From an uncultured Spartobacteria bacterium (GTDB lineage Bacteria > Verrucomicrobiota > Verrucomicrobiia > Chthoniobacterales > UBA6821): 64,000 nucleotides of DNA. Where the stretch lies: contig CAIWMF010000009.1 in NCBI GenBank assembly GCA_903913785.1, positions 2,878 to 66,877 of the forward strand, written 5' to 3'. The first letter of the stretch is position 1; every line of letters starts with the position of its first letter. Of this stretch, positions 3,246-57,209 are shown one piece after another. A model generated the notes under the pieces. The model was not told where the DNA came from and did no database searches. It saw only the letters and a program-made list of their open reading frames with translations. The translations under genes and the position numbers were made by a program.

Positions 3246-3260
3246 TATAGATTGATCATC

Positions 3261-4715
3261 ATGCCTTCCTCTGCTCTCAACTCAGGTTCTCGATCCATAC
3301 ACTTTTCCTACCGTATTATTGGTCTGGGTAATGCTGGGGTGAATTTTTTAGATCGCTTGTTACTTAAGGATCCTGCGTTCTCTGGACTCATTGCTCTTAA
3401 TAATGATGCTGAGGCACTCGCTGCCTCGGTTGTGACCACAAAGCTCCTTCTGCCCTCGGAGCTCGATGATTCTTCCTCATTGTCTTCTGAAGACTTAGCA
3501 AAAGCTCTTCCTCAACTTGTCAAGGAGATGGAGCAAGCATCAGTGGTAATTCTTGTGGGAGGTCTTGGTGGCGGATGCGCCTCAACACTCCTTCCTCATG
3601 TGGCAAGGATGAGTAAAGCCGCTCACAAAACGACTCTTGCCTGCGTGAGTCTTCCTTTTTCCTTTGAGGGTAAACGAACGCAATTAATAGCCGCTCAGTC
3701 GATGGCAGCATTAGAAAAAGAATGTGATGGATTGATTTTCCTAGATAATGATCGTCTTTGTGCAAAGCGTGCTTCGATTTCTGCCTTAGGGGAAACATTT
3801 ACTGCTTCTGATGAGGCTATGGAAGCGATTTTGCCCGCACTCTTAGCTATTTTATTTAACAAAGGTCCTGTTCGTATTACGCGTGCTGATTTTTTAAAAG
3901 CATTGCAAGAGCGTGGTTCCAAGCACTCGTTTGGTTACGGTGAGGCCATAGGGGGGAATCGATTACATGAAGCACTTGAGCAAGCTTTAAAAAATCCTCT
4001 ACTCGATCGTGGGCGCTGTTTGCCTAAAGCGAGTCATGTTTTTCTACTCTTGCGAGGTCCTAAGGATATTTCTTTTGCAGAAGTGCAAGCTGCCATGCAG
4101 GAAGTAGAGCGCTTGGCAGGACCTGACCGCGATATCCAATTAAGTGTGTATCCCGAGAAGCCTTCTGGAGAGCCTTTGCAAATTTTTCTTTTCGCTATTA
4201 TTGGAGGAACTCCTGCTGCACTAGAGGTAATGCAGCCCTTGCCAGCAGCTGAATCTAAACTACCCAAGGAAGAAATTATTAAGCCGCAACTAGAGCTTAG
4301 TAGTCATGAAACTCTCCCCTCTATAGATCTTTTAGAGCGCCCGCAAGCTTCTCAAGACGAACATGCCGTATTGGAGAGTATTGTAAGTAATTGTGAGACT
4401 CTTGCCAGTAGCCTAAAGACTAGCACCAAGGGAGTGAAGCCATACAGCCAAGAAGAGGAAGGATCAATAGCACCTAAAAAAGAGAGGGAAGATAAGAGGG
4501 AGCTTTTTCAAGAAGATCTTTTTAAGAAATCTGCTGAAATTCCAGATGCTATTGCTACAAAGTCCTTGCTACCTCCAAAACTCAAACAAACTCAAGGAGC
4601 TTTGAATCTCAAAGCCCTGCAACGAGGGCGCTTCGATAAAAGCGAACCAACTATTTTTGAGGGAGAGGATCTTGATACGCCTACCTATTTGAGATTAGGA
4701 TTAAAACTCGGCTAA
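3261..4715 (+). CDS. ftsZ: divergent FtsZ-like tubulin-fold protein
   Basis: Track ORF 3252..4715 (TTG start); first ATG at 3261. FtsZ-like blocks are present: IIGLGNAGVNFL, LNNDAEAL, VGGLGGGCAS, SLPFSFEGKR, FLDNDRL. It has a long disordered linker and a C-terminal DLDTPTYLRLG peptide resembling the FtsA-binding tail. It occupies the canonical position after ftsA. Confidence 0.8.
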   Translation: MPSSALNSGSRSIHFSYRIIGLGNAGVNFLDRLLLKDPAFSGLIALNNDAEALAASVVTTKLLLPSELDDSSSLSSEDLAKALPQLVKEMEQASVVILVGGLGGGCASTLLPHVARMSKAAHKTTLACVSLPFSFEGKRTQLIAAQSMAALEKECDGLIFLDNDRLCAKRASISALGETFTASDEAMEAILPALLAILFNKGPVRITRADFLKALQERGSKHSFGYGEAIGGNRLHEALEQALKNPLLDRGRCLPKASHVFLLLRGPKDISFAEVQAAMQEVERLAGPDRDIQLSVYPEKPSGEPLQIFLFAIIGGTPAALEVMQPLPAAESKLPKEEIIKPQLELSSHETLPSIDLLERPQASQDEHAVLESIVSNCETLASSLKTSTKGVKPYSQEEEGSIAPKKEREDKRELFQEDLFKKSAEIPDAIATKSLLPPKLKQTQGALNLKALQRGRFDKSEPTIFEGEDLDTPTYLRLGLKLG

Positions 4716-4949
4716 CCCGAATATTTCATACTGATTGTTACGAGGAGGCAGCGAAGCCTTATGGATACTGCGCTCAAGCTCGAAGTCGTTGATTCGCTTG
4801 GCGAAGCTTGACTCACCCCTTCGGGGCTGTTGGAGAGCAGTCTGCCCCACGGCCTCGCAGCCAGTGGTGTTCTCCGGGCATTATGTACAGAGATACAGCC
4901 CTGCTTCCAAATATTCGCATGCCTGACTCTATCAGGCTTCGCGGCTGCC
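4713..4949. mobile_element. MITE-like repeat copy A (one intact terminus, right terminus missing)
   Basis: Starts with (C)TAACCCGAATATTTCATACTGATTGTTACGAGG, sharing its TAA with the ftsZ stop codon. Internal blocks match other copies (GCGCTCAAGCTCGAAGTC, ATGTACAGAGATACAGCCC). Inverted arms GGCAGCGAAGCCT (4747-4759) and AGGCTTCGCGGCTGCC (4934-4949) close the element and are followed by a T7 run, so it could also act as the dcw-operon terminator. Confidence 0.75.
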
Positions 4950-6580: not shown

Positions 6581-6837
6581 GGTTTTCTTGGATTTTGGAT
6601 GACACGAAATACCAACTATATTAATAAAAATTTAGAGAAAACAACTCAATTTGATGGGTGCAGCCATAACCTGAATCTATCGATGATGATTTTTTGAGTA
6701 CGCAGCAAATCTTGAAAAACTGGCTCATTAGTGAGTAGTGGAACTCATCGATATCCTCTTTTTTCAGGGTGTCATTATTGATGAGTTAATTCGTAGCTCT
6801 GGTAGAGGATCATGATTGATTTCATAACAGAGTCCAT

Positions 6838-6879
6838 GTGGAATATTCGGGTTAAAGGTAAACCGCATATTTCATTGTG
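6838..6879. repeat. two abutted MITE-family termini (right end, 3-nt spacer, left end)
   Basis: GTGGAATATTCGGGTTAA AGG TAAACCGCATATTTCATTGTG. The two ends face each other, 61-85 nt upstream of the clpB ATG. Confidence 0.65.
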
Positions 6880-6939: not shown

Positions 6940-9516
6940 ATGAGACCTGATAAATTCACCATTAAAATGCAAGAGGCACTTCAAGGAGCGCTCGATATTG
7001 CTTCTAAATCCGGACAGCAGGAGGTGAGTAACGATCATTTTTTACTCTCATTATTAAGTCAAAATGAGGGGCTCGTTCGGCCATTGTTAGAAAAAATGGG
7101 AACTCAGGTGCAATCGCTCGCAGCGAAAATTGAATCACATCTTCTTTCCCAAGCCCGTGTACATGGGGGGTCACAGCCCTTTATTGGCAATGAACTTCGG
7201 AAAACGATCGATCATGCAGAAGAAGAACAGGAGAAACTCAAAGATGAATTTTTAAGTGCTGAGCATTATCTCTTAGCACTCTGTGATGAGAAGTTATGGG
7301 TTGCTCAATTTTTAAAAGAGCAGGGGATTACTCGTGACAAGCTCATGAAAACATTAGTTGAGGTGAGAGGGAGTCAGCGTGTGAGCGACCAAAATCCTGA
7401 AGGTAAATATCAAACGCTTGAAAAATATGGACGTGATCTCACCGCATTAGCCCGGAAAGGAAAAATTGATCCCGTAATTGGACGTGATGAGGAAATTCGG
7501 CGTACTATGCAAGTGCTCTCGCGTCGTACAAAAAATAACCCCGTCTTAATTGGGGAGCCAGGAGTTGGGAAGACTGCCATTGTCGAAGGGCTTGCCCGTC
7601 GCATTATCAGTGGTGATGTTCCTGAGTCACTGAAAAACAAGCGCCTTATAGCCATGGATATTGGTTCGATGGTTGCGGGAGCGAAATTCCGAGGAGAATT
7701 TGAAGATCGCTTGAAGGCTTTTTTAAAAGAAGTTAGTCGTTCAGAAGGTGAAATTATTCTTTTTATCGATGAACTCCATACCATTGTTGGAGCTGGTGCT
7801 AGTGAGGGATCCATGGATGCTTCTAATCTGCTCAAGCCACAGCTTGCTCGTGGAGAACTGCGCACCATAGGTGCTACAACTCTCAATGAGTATCGTAAAT
7901 ATATTGAAAAAGATGCTGCCCTCGAGCGACGTTTTCAACCTGTCATGGTTCAAGAACCAACTCTGGAGGATACGATTGCCATTTTGCGTGGATTAAAGGA
8001 GCGCTATGAGATCCATCACGGTGTTCGTATTCAAGATGCAGCCTTAGTGGCTGCAGCGCTTCTTTCACATCGCTACATTTCTGATCGTTTTTTGCCCGAT
8101 AAAGCCGTTGATCTCATGGATGAAGCCGCCTCGCGTTTAAAGATTGAACTTGAATCCATGCCAACAGAGATAGATCAAGGGGAGCGAGCCATTATGATGC
8201 TTGAGATGGAACGTCAGGCACTACGTAAAGAAAAAGATGCTGCGAGCAAAGAGCGCCTGGATAAGCTCGAGAAGGAACTCTCTGAAGTGAAAGAAAAAAC
8301 AACAACGCTTAAAACACGATGGCTCCAAGAAAAAGAAGAGATCGGTAAGTCGCAAAAGCTCAATGAAGAATTAGAGCTCTTGAAAAACGAGCTTGTTCAA
8401 GCCCAACGTCGTGGGGATTTCGCAAGAGCCAGTGAAATCCAATATGGTCGGATTCCTGAACTTTCTTCCAAACTTGAAGCTCATAATGAGCGTATGGCTC
8501 ATAAGGCAACTACCCAACACGCGCTCCTTCAAGAAGAGGTGACCGAAGAGGATATTGCCAAGGTCGTTGCAATTTGGACGGGAATTCCCGTTTCTAATCT
8601 GCAAGAAGGAGAACGACAAAAATTAGTGAAAATGGAGGAGCGCCTCATGAACCGTGTTGTAGGACAGGAGCAGGCGATCAAAGCTGTTTCGAGCGCTGTA
8701 CGACGTGCGCGTGCAGGCCTTCAAGAAGAGGATCGTCCTATTGGATCATTTATTTTTTTAGGACCCACAGGAGTTGGTAAAACAGAGTTATCAAAAGCCT
8801 TGGCAGAATTTCTCTTCAATGATGAGCATGCCATGATTCGCCTCGATATGAGTGAGTATATGGAGAAACATACTGTTGCACGATTGATTGGAGCTCCTCC
8901 TGGTTACGTTGGATATGATGAAGGAGGTCAGTTAACCGAGGCTGTGCGCCGCAAACCTTATTCTGTGATTCTTTTTGATGAGGTTGAAAAGGCACATGGA
9001 GATGTCTTTAATGTCCTCCTGCAAGTCCTTGATGATGGTCGTATTACTGATGGACAAGGACGTACAATCGATTTCAAAAATTGCGTTATCATCATGACGA
9101 GTAATATTGGGAGTCAGTTCATCATGGAGGATTTGAAGGCACAAGAGCGTAATAGTCGTGTTATGGAGGCACTCCGAGGACATTTTAGGCCAGAATTTTT
9201 GAATCGTATTGATGAAATTGTGATTTTTGATCGTTTGAGCGATCGTAATATCACGAAAATTATTGATATTCAGTTATCACGATTAATGCATCGATTAGAG
9301 AAACAAAAACTCTCGCTGCAGCTTTCGGAAAAAGCAAAAGCCTATCTTGCCAAAGAAGGATACGATCCCGCCTATGGAGCTCGTCCATTGAAGCGTGTGA
9401 TTCAACAAAAAATCTTAGATCCTTTGAGTATGTCGATCTTAGATGGTCATATTAAAGAGGGAGATGCTCTTGAAGGCGATTTTCTCAAGGATGAACTTGT
9501 TTTTAGGAAAACTTAA
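6940..9516 (+). CDS. clpB: ATP-dependent chaperone/disaggregase ClpB
   Basis: 858 aa. Two AAA+ modules (GEPGVGKT and GPTGVGKT Walker A motifs), a long coiled-coil middle domain and a Clp N-domain. Confidence 0.95.
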
Positions 9517-9566
9517 AAACATGCATGTTACGCATAGTGTATTGAAAATCTATGAGATCTCATATC

Positions 9567-9618
9567 TAGCCTAGCTTCCCAGCTTCTGCAGTAGATCGGT
9601 GTGAAATATTCGGGTTAA
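9567..9618. repeat. MITE-family solo end (left-end type, inverted)
   Basis: CCTAGCTTCCCAGCTTCTGCAGTAGATCGGTGTGAAATATTCGGGTTAA matches the reverse complement of the left end of copy 36009-36197 at 41 of 49 positions by hand alignment. Confidence 0.7.
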
Positions 9619-9667: not shown

Positions 9668-10564
9668 ATGCAACCAAAGAAGCTTGTTCAATTTGATTGG
9701 GCCATCAAGATACTCCTGCGCCGCAAGGCGAATTTTGGGATTCTTGAGGGATTTCTTTCTGAGCTGCTCAAGACGGATGTGAAAATAACATCATTGCTTG
9801 AAAGCGAATCCAATAAGGAGCACTCGAAGGACAAGTCAAATCGTGTCGATGTGTTGGCGCAACTCAGTCATGGTGAGCGCGTCATTATTGAAGTCCAATG
9901 CGAACGCGAGTGGGATTTTATTTCACGAATGCTCTATGGCGTTTCTAAAGTTGTGGTTGAGCATCTTCAGGAGGGTGATGCCTATGGAATGATTCCACGG
10001 ATCATATCGGTTAATATCGTCTACTTCGACTTGGGCCAAGGAGAAGATTACATCTATCATGGAACGACTCAATTTGAAGGTATTCACAAAAAAGATATTC
10101 TTCAGTTAAAAGAATCAGAGCAAAAAAATTATCCCAGCCGTATTGATCGCATAGGTCAAATCTTGCCAGAATATTACGTTCTTAAAGTCAGTGGCTTTGA
10201 CTTAAAAATAAAAGACACCCTCGATGAGTGGGTGTATACGCTGAAAGAATCGGAAGTCAAACCGGAGTTTAAAGCCAAGGGGATCCACGAAGCAGCCAAT
10301 ACACTCGCAGTGCTGAATCTTTCTGATGAGGAACGCTTCGCCTATGACCGACATATTGGCGATATGAGAATTTCTAAAAGCACAGCACAAACCTATTTTG
10401 GTGATGGTTTGAATGAAGGGATAGCCCAAGGGATGGCCCAAGGGATGGCCCAAGGAAAAGCTGAAATCGTCAACAATATGCATCAACTCGGTTTGTCAAT
10501 CACTGACATTGCAAAGTTTGTCAAACTTTCCGAAGCCTATGTCCAAAAGATTTTACAATCATGA
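9668..10564 (+). CDS. Rpn/YhgA-like PD-(D/E)XK nuclease family protein (putative transposase-like)
   Basis: 298 aa. The N-terminal pattern (FDWAIKILL, RVDVLAQLSHGERVIIEVQ) is typical of the Rpn-type 'putative transposase or invertase' family. The stop overlaps the mrp start (ATGA). Confidence 0.65.
   Translation: MQPKKLVQFDWAIKILLRRKANFGILEGFLSELLKTDVKITSLLESESNKEHSKDKSNRVDVLAQLSHGERVIIEVQCEREWDFISRMLYGVSKVVVEHLQEGDAYGMIPRIISVNIVYFDLGQGEDYIYHGTTQFEGIHKKDILQLKESEQKNYPSRIDRIGQILPEYYVLKVSGFDLKIKDTLDEWVYTLKESEVKPEFKAKGIHEAANTLAVLNLSDEERFAYDRHIGDMRISKSTAQTYFGDGLNEGIAQGMAQGMAQGKAEIVNNMHQLGLSITDIAKFVKLSEAYVQKILQS
10418..10453 (+). repeat. 12-bp tandem repeat x3 inside a CDS
   Basis: GGGATAGCCCAA GGGATGGCCCAA GGGATGGCCCAA, encoding GIAQGMAQGMAQ. 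Confidence 0.9.
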
Positions 10565-15467: not shown

Positions 15468-17600
15468 TTAATATACCAAAAAACGCATGGCATTAAGGTC
15501 TTCGGTAGCTCTTTTAAGCGATTTCTGAGCACGTTCAATGGCTTCTTTCTGATTTTTAATGCTGTTAATATTAGAACCTCCAACGATATAGGGTGAAGTA
15601 ATGAGCGTGTAATAGTCTTCCATAGAGCCCTTTCTTTCAAAAGAAAATTGAGAAAGATTATGCTTTGTCTTTATTTTCTCTTGGCCTGGACGCATATAGA
15701 GCAAGAGTGGTCCTGTTTGAGCATCAGGCTGTGCTAATTGAGTCACTTTCTTAAATTCAGAGGCAGCATGATCATATGATTGAGCTATTTTTTGATAAAG
15801 ATTTGCTCTTTCATAAAAATTATTTTCATGTGAGTGTACATATTCCTCGGCACTATTCCTGTAGTTGTTATACGCATGTAAGCAGCACATTTTTTCATCA
15901 GCTCTTTTGTTGCTCATCGCATTTTTGAGATCACTTTGGCTCTTAAGGGCTCTTTCTAATAAAAAATTTATTATCGCAGAATGATCGTGAGAGGTGACCT
16001 TTTGATGTGTGATCGCCATGTTTGATGAGCTTTTAAAAGTGCCATAGTTCTTTTTACTTTCATCAGGGAGTAAACATTCCAATTCTTCCTGAGTCGGTTC
16101 TACTTCCTTAGGTTCTGGCTCATGGAGAGCCTTCTTGGGTATGATGGGTCCATTGATATAATGAATGGAGGTATTCTCTGTTTTATTAATTTCAGTAAGA
16201 GTCGCATTTAATAAGGAGACTAGTGCTGTTGCTGGTCTTGAGTTGCGCTTGTTTGGAGGGTTCCCACAGACTGAGATCTTTGGGAAGGAGGAAAGTTCTT
16301 TAGTGATCAGTTCAGATCCTTCATCATCTGAATGTTTTAAACCTAGGAATAGAGGAGATTGTTTTTCTGATTTGACGGGCGAGGTCACCTGCGTGATAGG
16401 AAGAATATTTGATTTTGTATTTAGAAGAGGAGTTTTTTCGCTGTCTTGGATCCCAGAGTTAGCAAGATGAGTATTATTGTTGTTACGCTGAATAGAAGTA
16501 TTCATAAAATTGAAAAAATCTGTTTCTGACAATTCCTCGTTGTTACTTGCTCGTCTTATTTTTCCCAAGTCTAAATTATTTTGAGAAGACGTTCTCTCAT
16601 CTATGTATTGAGGTAGAGATCGAAATTCGTGCTCATAGGATGGCCGTGTATGGAGATTGGATTCTGCACAAAGACATGTGTCACATATTCTATTATGTAC
16701 TGGTTGTCGTTCTCTGTGCTGAAGGGGTCGTCGAACGCCTGAATAGACACTTATGCCAGATATAATGAGTCCCAAGGCATCTCTTATGAAGGGCTCTGCT
16801 ACGCCACCCATTGTTGGTATCATCATCATGGTCACATTTTTTTGATTCTCTTCTTGCCTCTCTAGCACAAAGAAGGAGTGATTACTTTTTAGATCGGGGT
16901 CGACGTTATGAAGACATGCTTCTTCATGATGATTTAACCCGGATATTTCATGCTGATCGTGACGAGAAGGCTGCCAAGTCTGATGGGGCAAGGCGAGTGA
17001 TGAAGCCTGACAACGGCTGTATGAGTACATATTGACTCGCTCGCACCTGCTCGGCTCGCCCTTACGGGCTGCCCCTAACCTAACACGGTTACGGCAGTCT
17101 ACCCCAGGCTCTCCCGCGCACTGGTGTTGCCCGAGGAAGACTTCGAGCTTGGGCGCAGCATCACTCTCTTGGGTTACCTCATCAAGTATTTCTTGCATGA
17201 CTTCCTCACTTATCTTAGAAGGGATATCCTTGCCTTCCTTCTCTTGAAGAATGAGGGCATAGCATTCTGCATCGAGTAAACTGAGAAATGTGATGAGAGC
17301 ATCTTGTGTCGTCTTGAAACTCTCTATCTCATCATTAAAGATAGGAGCTTCATAGACGTAGGACCCAGGAATACCCATGCGAAGGATTCCTCCTTTGGCT
17401 TGAGGAATATCTGCCATCTTTTCATTGTAGAGATGATGTAGGTCGCTTGTGGCTGCACCATTTAACAACTCGGTATATTTGCTAATGGATATTCTACTAT
17501 TGCGAGACTCTTGAGCAGCCAGCTTTGATAGGTGTGCAAAAAAAAGAAATGTTATTAGAGGTACGAAAAGAAAGATGAATGCAATGGGGGAATGGCGCAT
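15468..17600 (-). CDS. hypothetical secreted protein carrying an in-frame repeat-element insertion
   Basis: 710-aa ORF with an N-terminal signal-like segment (IAFIFLFVPLITFLFFAHLSKLAAQE). I recognise no family. Roughly aa 146-223 are encoded by MITE copy C. Confidence 0.55.
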   Translation of the reverse strand: MRHSPIAFIFLFVPLITFLFFAHLSKLAAQESRNSRISISKYTELLNGAATSDLHHLYNEKMADIPQAKGGILRMGIPGSYVYEAPIFNDEIESFKTTQDALITFLSLLDAECYALILQEKEGKDIPSKISEEVMQEILDEVTQESDAAPKLEVFLGQHQCAGEPGVDCRNRVRLGAARKGEPSRCERVNMYSYSRCQASSLALPHQTWQPSRHDQHEISGLNHHEEACLHNVDPDLKSNHSFFVLERQEENQKNVTMMMIPTMGGVAEPFIRDALGLIISGISVYSGVRRPLQHRERQPVHNRICDTCLCAESNLHTRPSYEHEFRSLPQYIDERTSSQNNLDLGKIRRASNNEELSETDFFNFMNTSIQRNNNNTHLANSGIQDSEKTPLLNTKSNILPITQVTSPVKSEKQSPLFLGLKHSDDEGSELITKELSSFPKISVCGNPPNKRNSRPATALVSLLNATLTEINKTENTSIHYINGPIIPKKALHEPEPKEVEPTQEELECLLPDESKKNYGTFKSSSNMAITHQKVTSHDHSAIINFLLERALKSQSDLKNAMSNKRADEKMCCLHAYNNYRNSAEEYVHSHENNFYERANLYQKIAQSYDHAASEFKKVTQLAQPDAQTGPLLLYMRPGQEKIKTKHNLSQFSFERKGSMEDYYTLITSPYIVGGSNINSIKNQKEAIERAQKSLKRATEDLNAMRFLVY
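16934..17164. mobile_element. MITE-like repeat copy C, located inside a CDS
   Basis: Starts TTAACCCGGATATTTCATGCTGATCGTGACGAGAAGGCTGCCAAG. It ends in CCCGAGGAAGACTTCGAGCTTGGGCGCAGCATC, which is the reverse complement of the GATGCTGCGCTCAAGCTCGAAGTCTTCCTCGGG block of copy D. The second terminus is missing. Confidence 0.75.
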
Positions 17601-36008: not shown

Positions 36009-36197
36009 TTAACCCGGATATTTCATACTCATCTACTGCGGAGACCGGGAAGCTAGGGTGGATGCTGCGCTCAAGCTCGAAGTCTTCCTCGGGCGGTATG
36101 TACACATACAGCCCGGCATCACAATCCTTCGCCCGCCTTGTACTAACAAGCTTTGCACAGCGTCTCATTACGATTCAGTATGAAATATCCGGGTTAA
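36009..36197. mobile_element. MITE-like repeat copy D (full length, both termini)
   Basis: 189 bp. TTAACCCGGATATTTCATAC at 36009 and GTATGAAATATCCGGGTTAA ending at 36197 are exact reverse complements, with TTAA on both sides. The interior shares blocks with copies A, C and G. Confidence 0.85.
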
Positions 36198-37571: not shown

Positions 37572-37700
37572 AGTAGTAAAGTGGGTTGTTTTTGTGATGG
37601 AAAACACACTATATAGTAAACTCAACGCATCTGCAAATTTTTTTTGCATTCTTTTTTTGGGGGGCACCCCCAATGCATGTCGTCCCATGAGAAGGGAGTC

Positions 37701-37767
37701 TAGCCCGCATATTTCATATTGGTTCGTCGCAAGCCGCAGCAGAATCGGTATGAAATATTCGGGTTAA
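37701..37767. mobile_element. mini MITE-family copy E (67 bp, both termini)
   Basis: TAGCCCGCATATTTCATAT ... GGTATGAAATATTCGGGTTAA. The termini are inverted at about 16 of 19 positions, with only about 28 nt between them. Confidence 0.75.
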
Positions 37768-37921: not shown

Positions 37922-38060
37922 TTAACCAGGATATTTCATACGGATCGTGACGAGGCGGCCGCGAATACTAATAGGGTAGCACCAGTGCTCCCTCTACTCG
38001 AGTACCTCAGGTACACTCCATTGCTGCGAGCTCTTAATTTCTTGTTTTTCATCAGCTTTA
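37922..38060. repeat. MITE-family copy F (one terminus plus interior shared with 41721-41824)
   Basis: TTAACCAGGATATTTCATACGGATCGTGACGAGGCGGCC..., ending ...TTCTTGTTTTTCATCAGCTTTA just before the giant ORF. The 3' 69 nt align to 41756-41824 at 50 of 69 positions. Confidence 0.7.
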
Positions 38061-41720: not shown

Positions 41721-41824
41721 TACGGACGAAATAACTACCTTGGCGCCGACCTTCGCTCTACCCGAGTATTTAAGGTATGCTTGATCAGTGTGTGCTGTCG
41801 ACTTCTTGTTTTTTATCAGCCTTA
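41721..41824. repeat. direct-repeat partner of 37939-38060, downstream of the giant gene
   Basis: TACGGACGAAATAACTACC...CTCTACCCGAGTATTTAAGG...TTCTTGTTTTTTATCAGCCTTA, in the same orientation as the upstream copy, running directly into copy G. Confidence 0.65.
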
Positions 41825-42035
41825 AACCCGGATATTTCCTACTGATCACCTGCGGAGACCGGGAAGCAAGGGTGGATGCTTCGCTCAAACTCACATTGTG
41901 ACTTGGGGAGGGCTGTACACATACAGCCCGGCGTCACAATGCTCGTCTGCCTTACCCCATCAGCCTTCGCAGTCTCTTCGTCACGACTAGCATGATTAGC
42001 ATGAAGTATCCGGTAGCATGAAGTATCCGGGCTAG
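41822..42035. mobile_element. MITE-like repeat copy G (full length, duplicated right terminus)
   Basis: TTAAACCCGGATATTTCCTACTGATCACCTGCGGAGACCGGGAAGCAAGGGTGGATGC... The right end is TAGCATGAAGTATCCGG twice (41997-42013 and 42014-42030), followed by GCTAG. Confidence 0.8.
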
Positions 42036-44829: not shown

Positions 44830-46140
44830 ATGTTGCGTATTAAAAACTGGCAGGAGTTATCTGCTTGTCAAAAAAAAGAGGTTCTCTCCAGGCCTCCCCA
44901 AAGTCATGCCCTTGGGGCGCAGGTGCGAGAGATTATCAACACGGTCAAGAAAGAAGGAGATGTGGCGCTAGGTAAGTGGACACGAGAGTTCGATCGCGTT
45001 GATTTAAAAACCTTCGCTATCTCTCAAGAGGAAATGGAAGAGGCTTCTCTTCCAGCCCATTCTCTTGCTGCGATTCAAGTAGCAGTAGAAAATATCACCC
45101 GTTTTCATCGCTCTATGCTACCGCAGAATCAATCTGTGAGGATTGTGCATGGAGTGACCCTTGAGCGCATCCATCGTCCGATGAGTCGTGTTGGTTTTTA
45201 TGTTCCAGGTGGTCGCAATGCTCCTTTGATTTCCTCTCTTCTCATGCAGGCTATTCCAGCTCAGGTGGCAGGATGTCCGTTACGTATTCTCTGTACTCCG
45301 CCAAAGTCCGACGGAACGATTGATCCGGCTCTCCTCGTTGCTGCACGTCTCTGCAACATCGAGAAGATTTATAAAATTGGAGGCGCCCAAGCTATCGCCG
45401 CAATGGCCTATGGAAGTGAAACCGTCCCCAAGGTGGATAAAATATTTGGCCCCGGTAATGCATACGTCACAGAAGCTAAAGTGCAAGTTTCCATCGATCC
45501 TGCTGGTGCTGCTATCGACATGCCCGCTGGCCCTTCTGAGGTTCTTATTATTGCTGATAGAGAGGCTAATCCCAATTTCGTCGCTGCCGATTTACTAGCG
45601 CAGGGGGAACATGGTCCGGATTCTCAGGTGTTTCTTTTATGTCAAGATCGCGTCTTTGCAGAAGCTGTTAATAAGGCGTTAGGCGAGCAGTATGAGCGTT
45701 TAAAGAGAAAAGAATTGCTTCAACAATCTCTGCAAAAGAGTGCTATTCTCCTGTGTGCAGATCGATCTATGATGATTGAAATTACTAATGAGTATGCTCC
45801 TGAGCATCTCATGATCCAGTGCTCTGATGCGGCAAGTTGGGTGGAGGAGATTACGGCGGCAGGAACGATTTTTTTGGGGTCATGGGCAGCAGAAACGCTC
45901 GGTGATTATGTGACCGGGAGCAATCATATCTTGCCCACTTATGGTCATGCACGCTGCCAGAGTGGTCTCTCAACGGGAGATTTTCTTAAATTTATCTGCG
46001 TCCAATCTATTTCTGAGGATGGCTTGAAAACCTTAGGAGGAGCAGCCCATACCCTCGCCATGATGGAGGGGTTAGATGGACATGCCAATGCGATTACTCA
46101 GCGATTAGCACTAGCCCGAATATTTCATGAGTGCTCTTGA
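44830..46140 (+). CDS. hisD: histidinol dehydrogenase
   Basis: 436-aa typical HisD. The last codons (ARIFHECS*) overlap a MITE-family terminus. Confidence 0.93.
   Translation: MLRIKNWQELSACQKKEVLSRPPQSHALGAQVREIINTVKKEGDVALGKWTREFDRVDLKTFAISQEEMEEASLPAHSLAAIQVAVENITRFHRSMLPQNQSVRIVHGVTLERIHRPMSRVGFYVPGGRNAPLISSLLMQAIPAQVAGCPLRILCTPPKSDGTIDPALLVAARLCNIEKIYKIGGAQAIAAMAYGSETVPKVDKIFGPGNAYVTEAKVQVSIDPAGAAIDMPAGPSEVLIIADREANPNFVAADLLAQGEHGPDSQVFLLCQDRVFAEAVNKALGEQYERLKRKELLQQSLQKSAILLCADRSMMIEITNEYAPEHLMIQCSDAASWVEEITAAGTIFLGSWAAETLGDYVTGSNHILPTYGHARCQSGLSTGDFLKFICVQSISEDGLKTLGGAAHTLAMMEGLDGHANAITQRLALARIFHECS
46111..46130. repeat. MITE-family solo terminus at the hisD/hisC junction
   Basis: CTAGCCCGAATATTTCATGA. 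It matches the family terminus (CTAG + CCCGAATATTTCAT), and the hisC ATG (46127-46129) lies inside it. Confidence 0.6.
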
Positions 46141-47191
46141 TTTAGTACGCCCTGATTTAGCAGGTATTCCAAATTATCTGGCTTGCTCGACGAAAGAAAA
46201 AATTCGTTTGCACATTAATGAATCACCGTGGAAGCCATTGGAGGCCTATGAGCTTCCTCTCAATCGCTATCCTGACATAGAACCGCAACTCAGCTTAGAA
46301 AAAGAACTATCGAAATTCTATCAAGTCGCCCCCTGCGAACTACTCCTAACCAGAGGAGCGGATGAGGGAATCGACTTCTTAATGCGTCTGTTTTTATCTC
46401 CTGGGAGGAGTAGCATGATGCAATTTCCTCCGACGTTTTTGATGTATGCGTTTTATGCGCGGCTGCAACAGGCTTCGATTATTTCTTGTCCGCTTGAGGG
46501 GCCTGATTTTCATTTCAATAGGGAGCGACTGCTAGAGCTCTGGGAACCTCACTGTAAAATGATCCTGCTCTGTAGGCCGAATAATCCTACTGGAAATCTT
46601 CTCTCGCTAGAAACTATTGCGAGCTTGTGTGAAGAGTTTGCGGATCGTTCGATTATCGTCGTTGATGAGGCTTACATTGAATTTGCAAACACACAGAGTG
46701 CGACAACGCTCATTCATCGCTTTGAGAATCTCTTTGTCCTAAGAACTCTGTCCAAGGCTCATGGCCTGGCAGGATTAAGGCTAGGGTGCGTGATAGGCTC
46801 CCAAGCTATGATCGAGGTCTTGCGAACCATTGCACCTCCCTTTGCCTTTTCGAGTCTGGTTTTAGAAGCTGCCTTATCCGCCATGAAGCATCCAGAGTGG
46901 GTTGAGGGAACGGTAAAAAATATTATTCATTATCGCGAGGAGTTGATCCTATGTCTGAGAAATTTTTCTTGGGTGGAGCACGTTTTCCCAAGCAAGGCCA
47001 ATTTTATTTTAATCAAAACATCCTTTGCCAAGCCTCTCTACGCATGGCTAGAGGATCATCATATTTTAGTGCGTCATTTTGCAGGCAATCCAGTCTTGCA
47101 GGATATGTTACGAATCACTGTTGGTACTGCCGCTGAAAATGAGCTCTTGCTAGCGGTCTTACATTCTTTTCACACCCCAGATCACAATTAA
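46127..47191 (+). CDS. hisC: histidinol-phosphate aminotransferase
   Basis: 354-aa class-II aminotransferase pattern ([21 protein letters not shown]). Overlaps hisD by 14 nt. Confidence 0.9.
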
Positions 47192-55328: not shown

Positions 55329-55942
55329 CTTCCCTTGACGAGATCACCTCGCAGGTGGGCGAACGATTGGAGCAGCAGATCGCCTTCATCCTAGAAATCG
55401 ATAGGCTCAAGACGGTCCTGCGCAAGACGAAATTGCTCCATGAGGAGCGTTTTGAAAATTCTGCCGAGCATAGTTGGCAGTTAGCACTCGCTGCCGTGAT
55501 TCTTGCCGAGTATGCCAATGAGAGTCTTGAGATCACCCGTGTTCTAAAAATGCTCCTCATTCACGATCTCATAGAAATCTATTCAGGTGATACATTTCAT
55601 TATGATAAGGAGGCTGATCCAACCCTCAGCATCAGGGAGCGGGAAGGGGCAAGGAAAATTTTTGCTCTCTTGCCACCCGACCAGGAGAAAGAACTCTTGA
55701 CGCTCTGGATGGAATTTGAAGAGCAGGCCACTGCCGAGGCGCAATTTTCCACAAGCATTGATCGCCTGATGCCGCTCCTCCTCCACGCCTCCAGACAAGA
55801 CAAAGGAGCTCCTCGTGTGAGCACCACGCAGATGCTAGAAAAAAATAGACAGATTCAACAGGGATCACAACAACTCTGGGCCCTTGCACAAGCAGTGATC
55901 GCAGGCCCGCTCACGCACAGGACCCCAGACATCTCTTTGTGA
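55325..55942 (+). CDS. HD-domain phosphohydrolase (YfbR-like)
   Basis: 205 aa with an NSAEHSW ... LLIHDLIEIYSGD pattern. Overlaps pdxJ by 4 nt. Confidence 0.75.
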   Translation: MTSLDEITSQVGERLEQQIAFILEIDRLKTVLRKTKLLHEERFENSAEHSWQLALAAVILAEYANESLEITRVLKMLLIHDLIEIYSGDTFHYDKEADPTLSIREREGARKIFALLPPDQEKELLTLWMEFEEQATAEAQFSTSIDRLMPLLLHASRQDKGAPRVSTTQMLEKNRQIQQGSQQLWALAQAVIAGPLTHRTPDISL

Positions 55943-56175
55943 TCATCATCACGAGAGACCCCGCGGATCACTACAAGAACGTTTTGATCAAACGTCATCA
56001 CCATGAATGTAGCCATGAATTCTTAAAAAAACACTTCCCTTCGCATGAAAATCTATTCTATGATTTCTGAACCTGCGTGAATTCAAGTAACGTGAGAAAA
56101 TCAAAACCAATGTCTTGAGTCCCTTGAATCTTGAGCCTGTAGATTCCATACTAAGAAAAAAAAATAACAAAATTT

Positions 56176-56943
56176 ATGCGTACTTATTTTAATGGTGTCG
56201 ATACTCGCGGAGCGTTTGGAAAGTTACATGAGGGAGAGGTACCAAAGCATGCATTCACCGGAAGACTCGGTGGTCATAAAGTCACAGTAGCTGATTTTGG
56301 TCCAACCGTCAATAAAGGCTTGAGAACCGCGATGCGGCTTCCTGGATATGCTCTAGTGGCTGCAGGTGCGCAAAAAACGGCTGAAGAGTTCTATCCAAAA
56401 TTATCAGTTAAAAAGTACCTCGCTGCAGAGTGTGTTCACACACTGGAACACCTAACCGCTGCGTCTCGAAAAGTGCGCGAAAATCGTGAGTTCGATGCAA
56501 AACAAGCAAAGAAAAACAAGACTGCAGATGAGCAATATACTCCGAGAAACCCTGTCAGGACTCACGGTAATAGTGGTCGTTTACCAATCTCCACAAGCAC
56601 TTCAGGTAGCACTGACCCTCAGCCTTCTAGCCCGGTACCCAATTTTTTTGATCATAACCCTATTAGTCAGGTTAATGAGGATACGCTGCGCAGTCGCTCT
56701 CCTAGTGTGGCTAGTGATGATAGTTATGATAGTGATGATAGTGATGATAGTGATGATAGTGTGGGTAGTGATGCTAGTAGTAACTTTGATTTTTATGAAA
56801 CACAAGAGCCCCCAGAAGAGCCCCTAAATACAGCAGCAGAAGTAGCAGACATAACACAAGGGTTAGAGAAGTATGCTACAGAAACAAATATCCCCGCTAA
56901 AATAGGAGCAGACATAGCACAAGCGTTACAGAAAAAAGCATAA
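56176..56943 (+). CDS. hypothetical protein with an acidic Ser/Asp repeat tract
   Basis: 255-aa ORF. I recognise no family. Its C-terminal half contains DDSYDSDDSDDSDDSVGSD. Confidence 0.5.
   Translation: MRTYFNGVDTRGAFGKLHEGEVPKHAFTGRLGGHKVTVADFGPTVNKGLRTAMRLPGYALVAAGAQKTAEEFYPKLSVKKYLAAECVHTLEHLTAASRKVRENREFDAKQAKKNKTADEQYTPRNPVRTHGNSGRLPISTSTSGSTDPQPSSPVPNFFDHNPISQVNEDTLRSRSPSVASDDSYDSDDSDDSDDSVGSDASSNFDFYETQEPPEEPLNTAAEVADITQGLEKYATETNIPAKIGADIAQALQKKA
56713..56781 (+). repeat. 9-bp coding microsatellite (AGTGATGAT and variants, about 7.5 units)
   Basis: AGTGATGAT AGTTATGAT AGTGATGAT AGTGATGAT AGTGATGAT AGTGTGGGT AGTGATGCT AGTAGT. Confidence 0.9.
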
Positions 56944-57079
56944 TATCATCGTGAACTAGAGTCATGGGACGCCTCATCTACAATCATGATGCTTTCTCTA
57001 TAAGTCTGATCCTGCTACGATCACGTCTCTGCTACTCACGCGTGACTCTCTTGCTGAGAACCTTATTTGCGGTCCTGGC

Positions 57080-57137
57080 CCGCACGCATCATCTTCGCGG
57101 TCTCCTCGTCACGATCAGTATGAAATATTCGGGCTAG
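57080..57137. repeat. MITE-family solo end upstream of dnaG
   Basis: ...CATCATCTTCGCGGTCTCCTCGTCACGATCAGTATGAAATATTCGGGCTAG matches the right-end type of copies C and G. No partner terminus is found within about 200 nt upstream. Confidence 0.7.
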
Positions 57138-57209
57138 ATTGCGGATGCTAAGGGCATGCGAGTCTTTGTACTTGCCGAGTATCTATGCCTTGTGCAAGTA
57201 GTCTATTGC

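Follow-up and report, generated by a model that had tools for sequence, protein, structure and literature searches.

A solo terminal repeat of an IS1380-derived miniature element at the hisD–hisC junction of an uncultured verrucomicrobium is probably a neutral scar

The histidine biosynthesis genes hisD and hisC overlap in a 64-kb stretch of contig CAIWMF010000009.1 (the whole stretch analysed, hereafter the window), and their junction contains a short piece of a repeat family that recurs in the same DNA. The gene hisD (44830..46140, + strand) encodes a 436-aa histidinol dehydrogenase with PF00815 homologues, and hisC (46127..47191, +) encodes a 354-aa histidinol-phosphate aminotransferase (PF00155, E 3.5e-49). 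Both are full-length family matches, and the operon order is hisG-D-C-B-H-A-F-IE. The hisC ATG is at 46127 and the hisD stop is the TGA at 46138-46140, which gives an overlap of 14 nt (46127..46140, +). The stretch at 46111-46128 reads CTAGCCCGAATATTTCAT. It consists of CTAG (46111..46114, +), a 4-bp YTAR flank of the target-site type that also precedes family ends, and CCCGAATATTTCAT (46115..46128, +), a solo 14-nt terminal inverted repeat (TIR) identical to the ends at 4716, 37750(-), and 57120(-). In the hisD frame the string is read CTA GCC CGA ATA TTT CAT, or L-A-R-I-F-H. The HisD tail follows the conserved ...HANAITQRL and ends ARIFHECS, and the sequence that serves as both hisD tail and hisC leader, CTAGCCCGAATATTTC, comprises 19 nt after the conserved R-L codons. 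Among homologues, the tails after RL range from 2 to more than 20 residues.

The site holds one end of an element. Similarity to the family stops after CAT, and the hisC start codon shares only its A and T with the TIR, as the two bases that close the repeat. Between 44800 and 47300 there is neither family interior (ACTGATCGTGACGAGG...) nor a second inverted TIR, so the site is a remnant and not a complete element. More degenerate remnants were looked for within hisD and hisC, and none was found.

The match to the repeat terminus is short and exact. The 14-nt TIR CCCGRATATTTCAT is matched without mismatch at 46115-46128, next to the CTAG flank at 46111-46114. When up to two mismatches are allowed, the window contains 15 sites for the 14-mer where 0.54 would be expected, and the degenerate 18-mer of flank plus TIR, YTARCCCGRATATTTCAT, has seven exact sites against 0.00 expected (100 shuffles). 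The other six of these seven sites are true element ends that lead into the shared family interior, and the hisD 18-mer is identical to the element end at 57120(-). The initial annotation had recognized a family terminus at the end of hisD, and this identification is borne out. Its remark that other copies give RIFH peptides in the same frame is also correct, with LTRIFHADRDE arising at 16934 and a second 11-residue peptide at 37922. On the strength of this match, the hisD codons L-A-R-I-F-H are almost certainly element-derived.

Several properties identify the parent of the family. Copies range from 60 to 290 bp, are flanked by TTAA, CTAG, or CTAA, and have TIRs that are perfect over up to 21 nt. 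The complete copies E1 (in the window), in hisD of the relative L012, and in hisC of the relative L139 carry identical flanks on both sides. A metagenome scan for YTARCCCGRATATTTCAT matched at least 120 stretches. Among the matches listed, L019 (333-1957) and L063 (4423-6017) have YTAR+CCCGRATATTTCAT ends about 1.6 kb apart. The ORF (open reading frame) between these ends encodes 446-471 aa; it is recognized by PF13701 with E 2.6e-168 and by the 'IS1380 family transposase' model NF033539 with E 9.6e-128. Because the same ends bound these transposase-coding elements, the window repeats are non-autonomous derivatives, or MITEs (miniature transposable elements with inverted repeats), of an IS1380-type insertion sequence (IS). 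The autonomous elements of L019 and L063 lie on high-GC (61-62%) metagenome contigs of other organisms. The window copies are without transposase, and there is no parent IS within the window. A literature search combining Verrucomicrobia, MITE, and IS1380 found no description of this repeat family.

The remnant is present throughout the immediate clade. The comparison covered the members of the HisD cluster and P0125, with P0001 as the closest relative (97%). All strains of the clade of at least 95% identity carry the scar, with single-base variants. The string CTAGCCCGAATATTTCAT is found in the window and in L006-L011, whereas L004 and L005 have the variant ACCGAATATTTCAT (junction CTAGACCGAATATTTCAT, stop TAA), and the tail in P0001 and P0124 is ARISHECS. 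The changes among these close strains are GCC>GAC, TTT>TCT, and a stop change of TGA>TAA, all of them non-synonymous or in the stop codon, and the remnant thus drifts like unconstrained sequence. ENA, JGI, and Logan assemblies together contain the junction on 13 contigs, each assembled independently. This recurrence, together with the single-base variants in related strains, shows that it is not an assembly artefact.

Outside the clade the string is missing. Seven outgroup junctions were compared: L001, L138, L012, and L139 form a sister group at about 70% HisD identity, L136 and L137 a group at about 62%, and L013 completes the set. In all seven (HisD identity 60-70%) the linkers are unrelated to the TIR, whether or not the genome carries the family. 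In the sister group the linkers measure 20, 20, 20, and 47 nt and the overlaps 4 or 1 nt. L136 and L137 read ...CGATTGCA(C/A)TC(A/G)TTGGGAG(A/G)GTCAA and then ATGAGTG(T/C)ACTT..., with a 19-nt linker, a 14-nt overlap, and the tail ...SNECT*. L013, L136, and L137 contain no family copies in 22.7 kb and have GGGAG-type linkers. It had been proposed that relatives without the repeat family, if they carried the same junction sequence, would point to chance resemblance; the element-free genomes do not share it.

The start of hisC is a different matter. The hisC start ATGAGTGC and the ...EC[STN]* tail of HisD are found in the element-free, Legionellales-type L013, L136, and L137. The 14-nt overlap is shared by these three, by the contig of P0001, and by L004-L011, and in the window as in L013, L136, and L137 the hisD stop lies beyond the hisC start. 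The HisC N-terminus, MS(A/V)(L/I)(D/N)L(V/I)RPD, is conserved and collinear in eight lineages; the aligned starts are MSVLD, MSALN, MSAIN, MSVD, and MSID (L139, L136, L137, L013, L001, L012, L138). This conservation supports the ATG at 46127, rather than another codon, as the true hisC start, and by the same comparison it is the ancestral one. Since start codon, overlap, and ...EC[STN]* ending are present in element-free relatives, they all predate the element. In the clade of at least 95% identity, the sequence of 16-18 linker bases alone is new. A recombination breakpoint at the junction was considered and rejected, because the identities of HisD, HisC, and HisB to their relatives are concordant on both sides; the scar is therefore local.

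We consider it likely that the solo TIR is the remnant of a MITE insertion followed by a deletion, with the ancestral hisC start and overlap kept and probably with no effect on fitness. The target of the insertion would have been a CTAG within the brief, variable segment that forms both the HisD tail and the hisC leader, and the event would have fallen in the common ancestor of the clade of at least 95% identity and after the split from the ~70% sister group. A deletion would then have taken out the interior together with the second TIR and what was left of the old linker. It would have rejoined TIR base 14 (or base 12, via an AT microhomology) to the existing hisC start ...ATGAGTGC, so that ...TTTCAT became joined to GAGTGC at the old start. 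The outcome would be a HisD tail of ordinary length with L-A-R-I-F-H encoded by element DNA, and a hisC that keeps its ATG, its N-terminus, and the 14-nt overlap.

Both steps have parallels in related genomes. The family struck his genes repeatedly in the sister group, where whole copies lie in L012 hisD and L139 hisC. Copies are also polymorphic in presence or size between close strains, and decay by deletion is seen at other sites; at the hisD site itself no presence polymorphism was seen. E1 is absent from L006, where the site reads CCTGCG directly followed by GGTTAATG; a clean empty site would be CCTGCGTTTTAATG. In this comparison (L006:1100-1400 against L007:1100-1450), 2-4 nt matching the right TIR lie beside TTAA; they could stem from an imprecise deletion via CG microhomology, or the site could be an empty one in which two bases were substituted. 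The copy E2 differs in length between strains, with 286 bp in L006, 205 bp in the window, and about 75 bp in L004. Moreover, a YfbR-like HD-domain gene in the sister species, L004 (14520-14560) and L005 (14100-14140), ends ...PDISSSRSV*, its last codons coming from the final ~30 nt of a copy with the right end CTCGTCACGATCAGTATGAAATATCCGGKCTAG. The window is 1.2 kb longer here (55900-57140) and includes ORF 56176-56943. The likely cause of the fusion is loss of the DNA that lies between the copy at 57093-57137 and a MITE-like palindromic remnant at 55935-55965.

Translation initiation in this genome bears on how such a leader would be tolerated. The duplex with the anti-Shine–Dalgarno (anti-SD) sequence has a median of -0.65 kcal/mol over the window starts, and 11% of starts reach -4 or lower. 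Medians of about -0.65 to +0.6 kcal/mol for the window, L001, and L012 contrast with -6.2 in the Legionellales-type L013. An SD-like GGAG precedes hisC in L001, L012, L013, L136, and L137 and is lost in the window; two of the four sister-group junctions (L138, L139) also have no SD at hisC. Loss of the SD as a sign of remodelling was therefore dropped, given that the window genome and its sister group rarely use one. The start context ...TCATG occurs at 8 of the 44 window starts listed, including hisB (ATCATTTCATG). Most likely, hisC is translated from the ancestral ATG by SD-independent initiation, by re-initiation of ribosomes that end hisD 11 nt downstream, or by both.

Some observations weigh against insertion followed by deletion. 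Only 14 nt and the flank survive, and the identification rests on that short, though exact, string. Neither a complete-element allele nor a pre-insertion allele of the site was found in a collection of 5.8 billion proteins, in which HisD identities show a gap between 95% and 70%; the two-step history is for this reason one that we infer, as are the order of its steps, the microhomology, and neutrality. The 19-nt linker also equals that of the distant, element-free L136 and L137, a coincidence if an insertion and a deletion intervened, softened by lengths of 10, 20, 20, 20, and 47 nt in other relatives. A linker that merely happens to spell flank and TIR would need no such coincidence, as its length would be that of element-free relatives without any insertion, and the stretch is short, unconstrained, and A/T-rich. 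We nevertheless regard chance resemblance as extremely unlikely: the match to YTAR plus TIR is exact at 18/18 positions with 0.00 expected per window, for a genome of 3 Mb we arrive at roughly 1e-3, and outgroup linkers match the 18-mer at no more than about 8/18 positions. A single, length-preserving event, either a templated patch (template switch or micro-conversion) or an aberrant one-ended transposase reaction, would account for a linker of exactly 19 nt as in L136 and L137. Some metagenome IS ends read ...TTTCATGAG like the junction (the L063 right end), and the IS1380-family element ISEcp1 is known for one-ended transposition. We judge this event very unlikely; it has no direct evidence, flanking homology for a conversion amounts to at most 5-6 nt, ordinary deletions are documented in the family, and linker length varies freely among the relatives.

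Two further proposals concern what the remnant does, not how it arose. The initial annotation suggested that the hisC start codon came from the element, which would also have remodelled the coupling junction of an essential operon. In favour of this, the TIR ends in the two bases that serve as A and T of the ATG; moreover, the sister group (L001, L138, L012, L139) overlaps by 4 or 1 nt and not by 14, and the GGAG of L001, L012, L013, L136, and L137 is gone. In this full form the claim is quite unlikely. ATGAGTGC, the 14-nt overlap, and ...EC[STN]* are unchanged in the element-free L013, L136, and L137, the 19-nt linker is found in L136 and L137, the hisC N-terminus is collinear with that of relatives, and starts without an SD are the rule in the window genome, with L138 and L139 also lacking one. 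What stands is the almost certain element origin of the stop-proximal hisD codons and the position of the A and T within the terminus; the start codon is ancestral and not element-supplied, and the junction has the same geometry in element-free relatives. It could also be proposed that the solo TIR is kept since it is useful, as an SD-independent hisC leader or as a putative site for an IS1380 transposase or host factor that modulates his expression. It is retained throughout the clade of at least 95% identity, its ...TCATG context recurs at 8/44 starts, including that of hisB, and an AGCACT/AGTGCT inverted repeat flanks it and can enclose the AUG. Three different point changes inside or beside the remnant among very close strains make such a role quite unlikely, retention is also expected of a neutral scar in a young clade, the junction RNA gains no stability in its fold over shuffled sequences (z = -0.34), and no promoter or terminator signals were found at the junction. 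A scar left by insertion and deletion is probably neutral, as the HisD tails are highly variable, the genome is largely SD-independent, and other window starts have a context similar to the A/T-rich ...TTTCATG.

The inverted repeat at the junction can be described in its own right. It is a perfect 6-bp pair, AGCACT (46107-46112) and AGTGCT (46130-46135), with the TIR remnant and the hisC AUG between its arms. L137 has a weaker counterpart, GCACT...AGTGT. An Rfam search of the window gave no matches.

Copies read in frame inside genes are found whole in relatives and once, one-ended, in the window. The hisD of L012 (6458-7936; P0006, 492 aa, a relative at ~69%) contains a complete 176-bp copy at 6632-6815 with CTAG on both sides. 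This copy adds 60 in-frame residues, DL-ARIFHTDLLRKPG...RHDQYEISG-LASL, and begins DL-ARIFHTD..., in the same frame as the window HisD tail. The P0006 cluster has 14 members and the L012 contig occurs in four samples, so the insert is not a one-off assembly error. In the hisC of the contig of P0005, a complete in-frame copy at TTAA (L139:3445-3628) reads ..PVL-LTQIFHADLL...RHNQHEISG-LNRYPD. In the frame YTA RCC CGN ATA TTT CAT, the L012 hisD copy is free of stops in both orientations, and no stop interrupts the reading of the L139 hisC copy; other copies carry stops. A 710-aa ORF on the minus strand of the window (15468-17600) has a signal-peptide-like N-terminus, no Pfam match, and a one-ended in-frame copy at 16934-17162 that reads ...LALPHQTWQPSRHDQHEISGLN... 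(...RHDQHEISGLN...). In-frame copies are found in L012 hisD, L139 hisC, and this ORF, and not at the window hisD, which has 14 nt only. At the codon that holds the L139 insert, the hisC of L012 (about 8065-8225) carries a different insert of ~156 nt with CTAG...TTAA bounds and inverted ends of another sequence (AACCTGTTTTCAAGG...). This suggests that a second element family uses the same hisC hot spot as the L139 copy. The longer GroEL proteins P0137 and P0138 were considered as further in-frame insertions and rejected; they contain internal duplications or assembly artefacts and no RIFH or EISG peptides.

Similar situations are known from other bacteria. In Coxiella burnetii, QMITE1 and QMITE2 overlap the 3' coding ends of housekeeping genes (among them ubiB, pntAA, mutT, recN, and ruvB) by 1-50 bp, and QMITE copies supply C-terminal residues, for example 33 aa of EnhC in the Dugway strain, with an effect that is either not known or taken to be neutral (Wachter et al. 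2018, PMC5896051). The window likewise has MITE sequence at the C-terminal coding end of a housekeeping gene. In contrast to the QMITEs, its family has IS1380-type ends, a YTAR flank, and a Verrucomicrobiota host, and hisD keeps only a 14-nt solo TIR inside a stop/start overlap and not at a free 3' end. In Rickettsia, the palindromic elements called RPEs, which are small and mobile, lie in frame in metabolic genes and are read as extra peptide (Ogata et al. 2000/2002; review PMC10969869). The copies in L012 hisD, L139 hisC, and ORF 15468..17600 appear to resemble them in this respect, whereas the window hisD tail is a terminal scrap and not a whole in-frame element. Furthermore, RPEs are without a known parent IS, and the window family shares its ends with IS1380-family ISs. 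A broader possibility is that the family behaves like RPEs in general, with YTAR targeting, one frame open in both orientations, and copies that persist translated in HisD and HisC, and that its decay seeds C-terminal tails and SD-independent leaders, with the solo TIR co-opted as the hisC initiation context; we consider this combination unlikely.

As in IS1380-family ISs such as ISEcp1, the family has ends that start with CC(C) and target flanks of 4 bp, and a transposase (NF033539/PF13701) lies between the same ends in L019 and L063, whereas the window copies measure 60-290 bp and have no transposase. The transposon piggyBac inserts at TTAA and has the ends CCC...GGG. IS1380 transposases serve as its prokaryotic outgroup (PMC10813416). 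Stop/start overlaps, as ATGA or longer, are found in biosynthetic operons, and the 14 nt of hisD/hisC, with 14, 4, or 1 nt in relatives, are nothing unusual. The comparison with relatives indicates that this geometry predates the element, and coupling across it is putative.

The scar is real but ordinary. It is a clean, dated case in which the end of a mobile element has turned into ordinary coding and leader sequence in an essential operon that was left undisturbed, and an illustration of how element scars are absorbed by gene tails that are short and variable and by leaders that do not depend on an SD. It also cautions annotators that a start is not necessarily remodelled when a repeat terminus lies at its gene junction. 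The in-frame copies in the sister hisD and hisC are more notable. They extend the RPE/QMITE phenomenon to another phylum, in uncultured Verrucomicrobiota, and to a family with an identifiable parent IS, and this pattern may be of more interest than the hisD–hisC scar.

The host of these genes was assigned from several proteins. The best named HisD relatives are from Legionella (about 60%), and a Legionellales host was first assumed from these matches. This was rejected because GroEL of the window is 89-93% identical to that of Verrucomicrobiota/Chthoniobacteraceae metagenome-assembled genomes and places the host in Verrucomicrobiota. P0003, a HisD relative at ~70%, is labelled Chthoniobacterales, and a HisD scan of the genome-contig collection returned only Lentisphaeria and Victivallaceae loci at 38% identity. 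These matches, with the scarcity of SD sequences, make the host a freshwater verrucomicrobium whose his operon is Legionella-like. GroEL is verrucomicrobial while HisD, HisC, and HisB are closest to Legionella-type proteins, which hints that the his operon may have been exchanged horizontally between the two groups.

The family is abundant, with about 10 copies in the 64 kb of the window; of the eight listed here, three are complete. E1 (36009..36197, +) is 181 bp long with a 21-nt perfect TIR and TTAA on both sides, E2 (41822..42035, +) is 205 bp and lies downstream of an OprB-like gene, and the mini copy E3 (37700..37767, +) has 60 bp, equal to two TIRs and ~30 nt of interior. The other five are one-ended. 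On the plus strand they are the copy at 4712..4787, the in-frame copy in the 710-aa ORF (16934..17162), and a copy that reads TTAA + CCAGGATATTTCAT... (37922..37976). On the minus strand, one lies downstream of clpB (9564..9618) and one upstream of dnaG (57093..57137), the latter with the end CTAGCCCGAATATTTCAT, the hisD 18-mer.

A few minor features accompany these copies. The FtsZ-like ORF 3252..4715 has its TAA stop inside the CTAA flank (4712-4715) of the copy that starts at 4716. Any YTAR target has TAA or TAG in one frame, so elements can land on or supply stop codons. At 6838-6875, 65 nt upstream of clpB, two solo TIR-like 14-mers stand tail-to-tail, GTGGAATATTCGGG ttaaaggtaa ACCGCATATTTCAT. 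There is no family interior on either side of this pair (6838/6862), and L015, the sole relative retrieved via ClpB, is the same strain. Another solo end, CTAG + CCCGCCTATTTCAT without interior, directly follows the hisIE stop in L012 (13124-13141). The ORF 56176-56943, which is absent from L004 and L005, contains a 9-nt tandem repeat (GATAGTGAT, 56694-56792) that encodes an Asp/Ser-rich run. Finally, ORF 9668-10564, which is separated by 50 nt from an element end (9601-9618) at its start, has a PD-(D/E)XK nuclease-family transposase domain (PF12784, E 1.8e-23).

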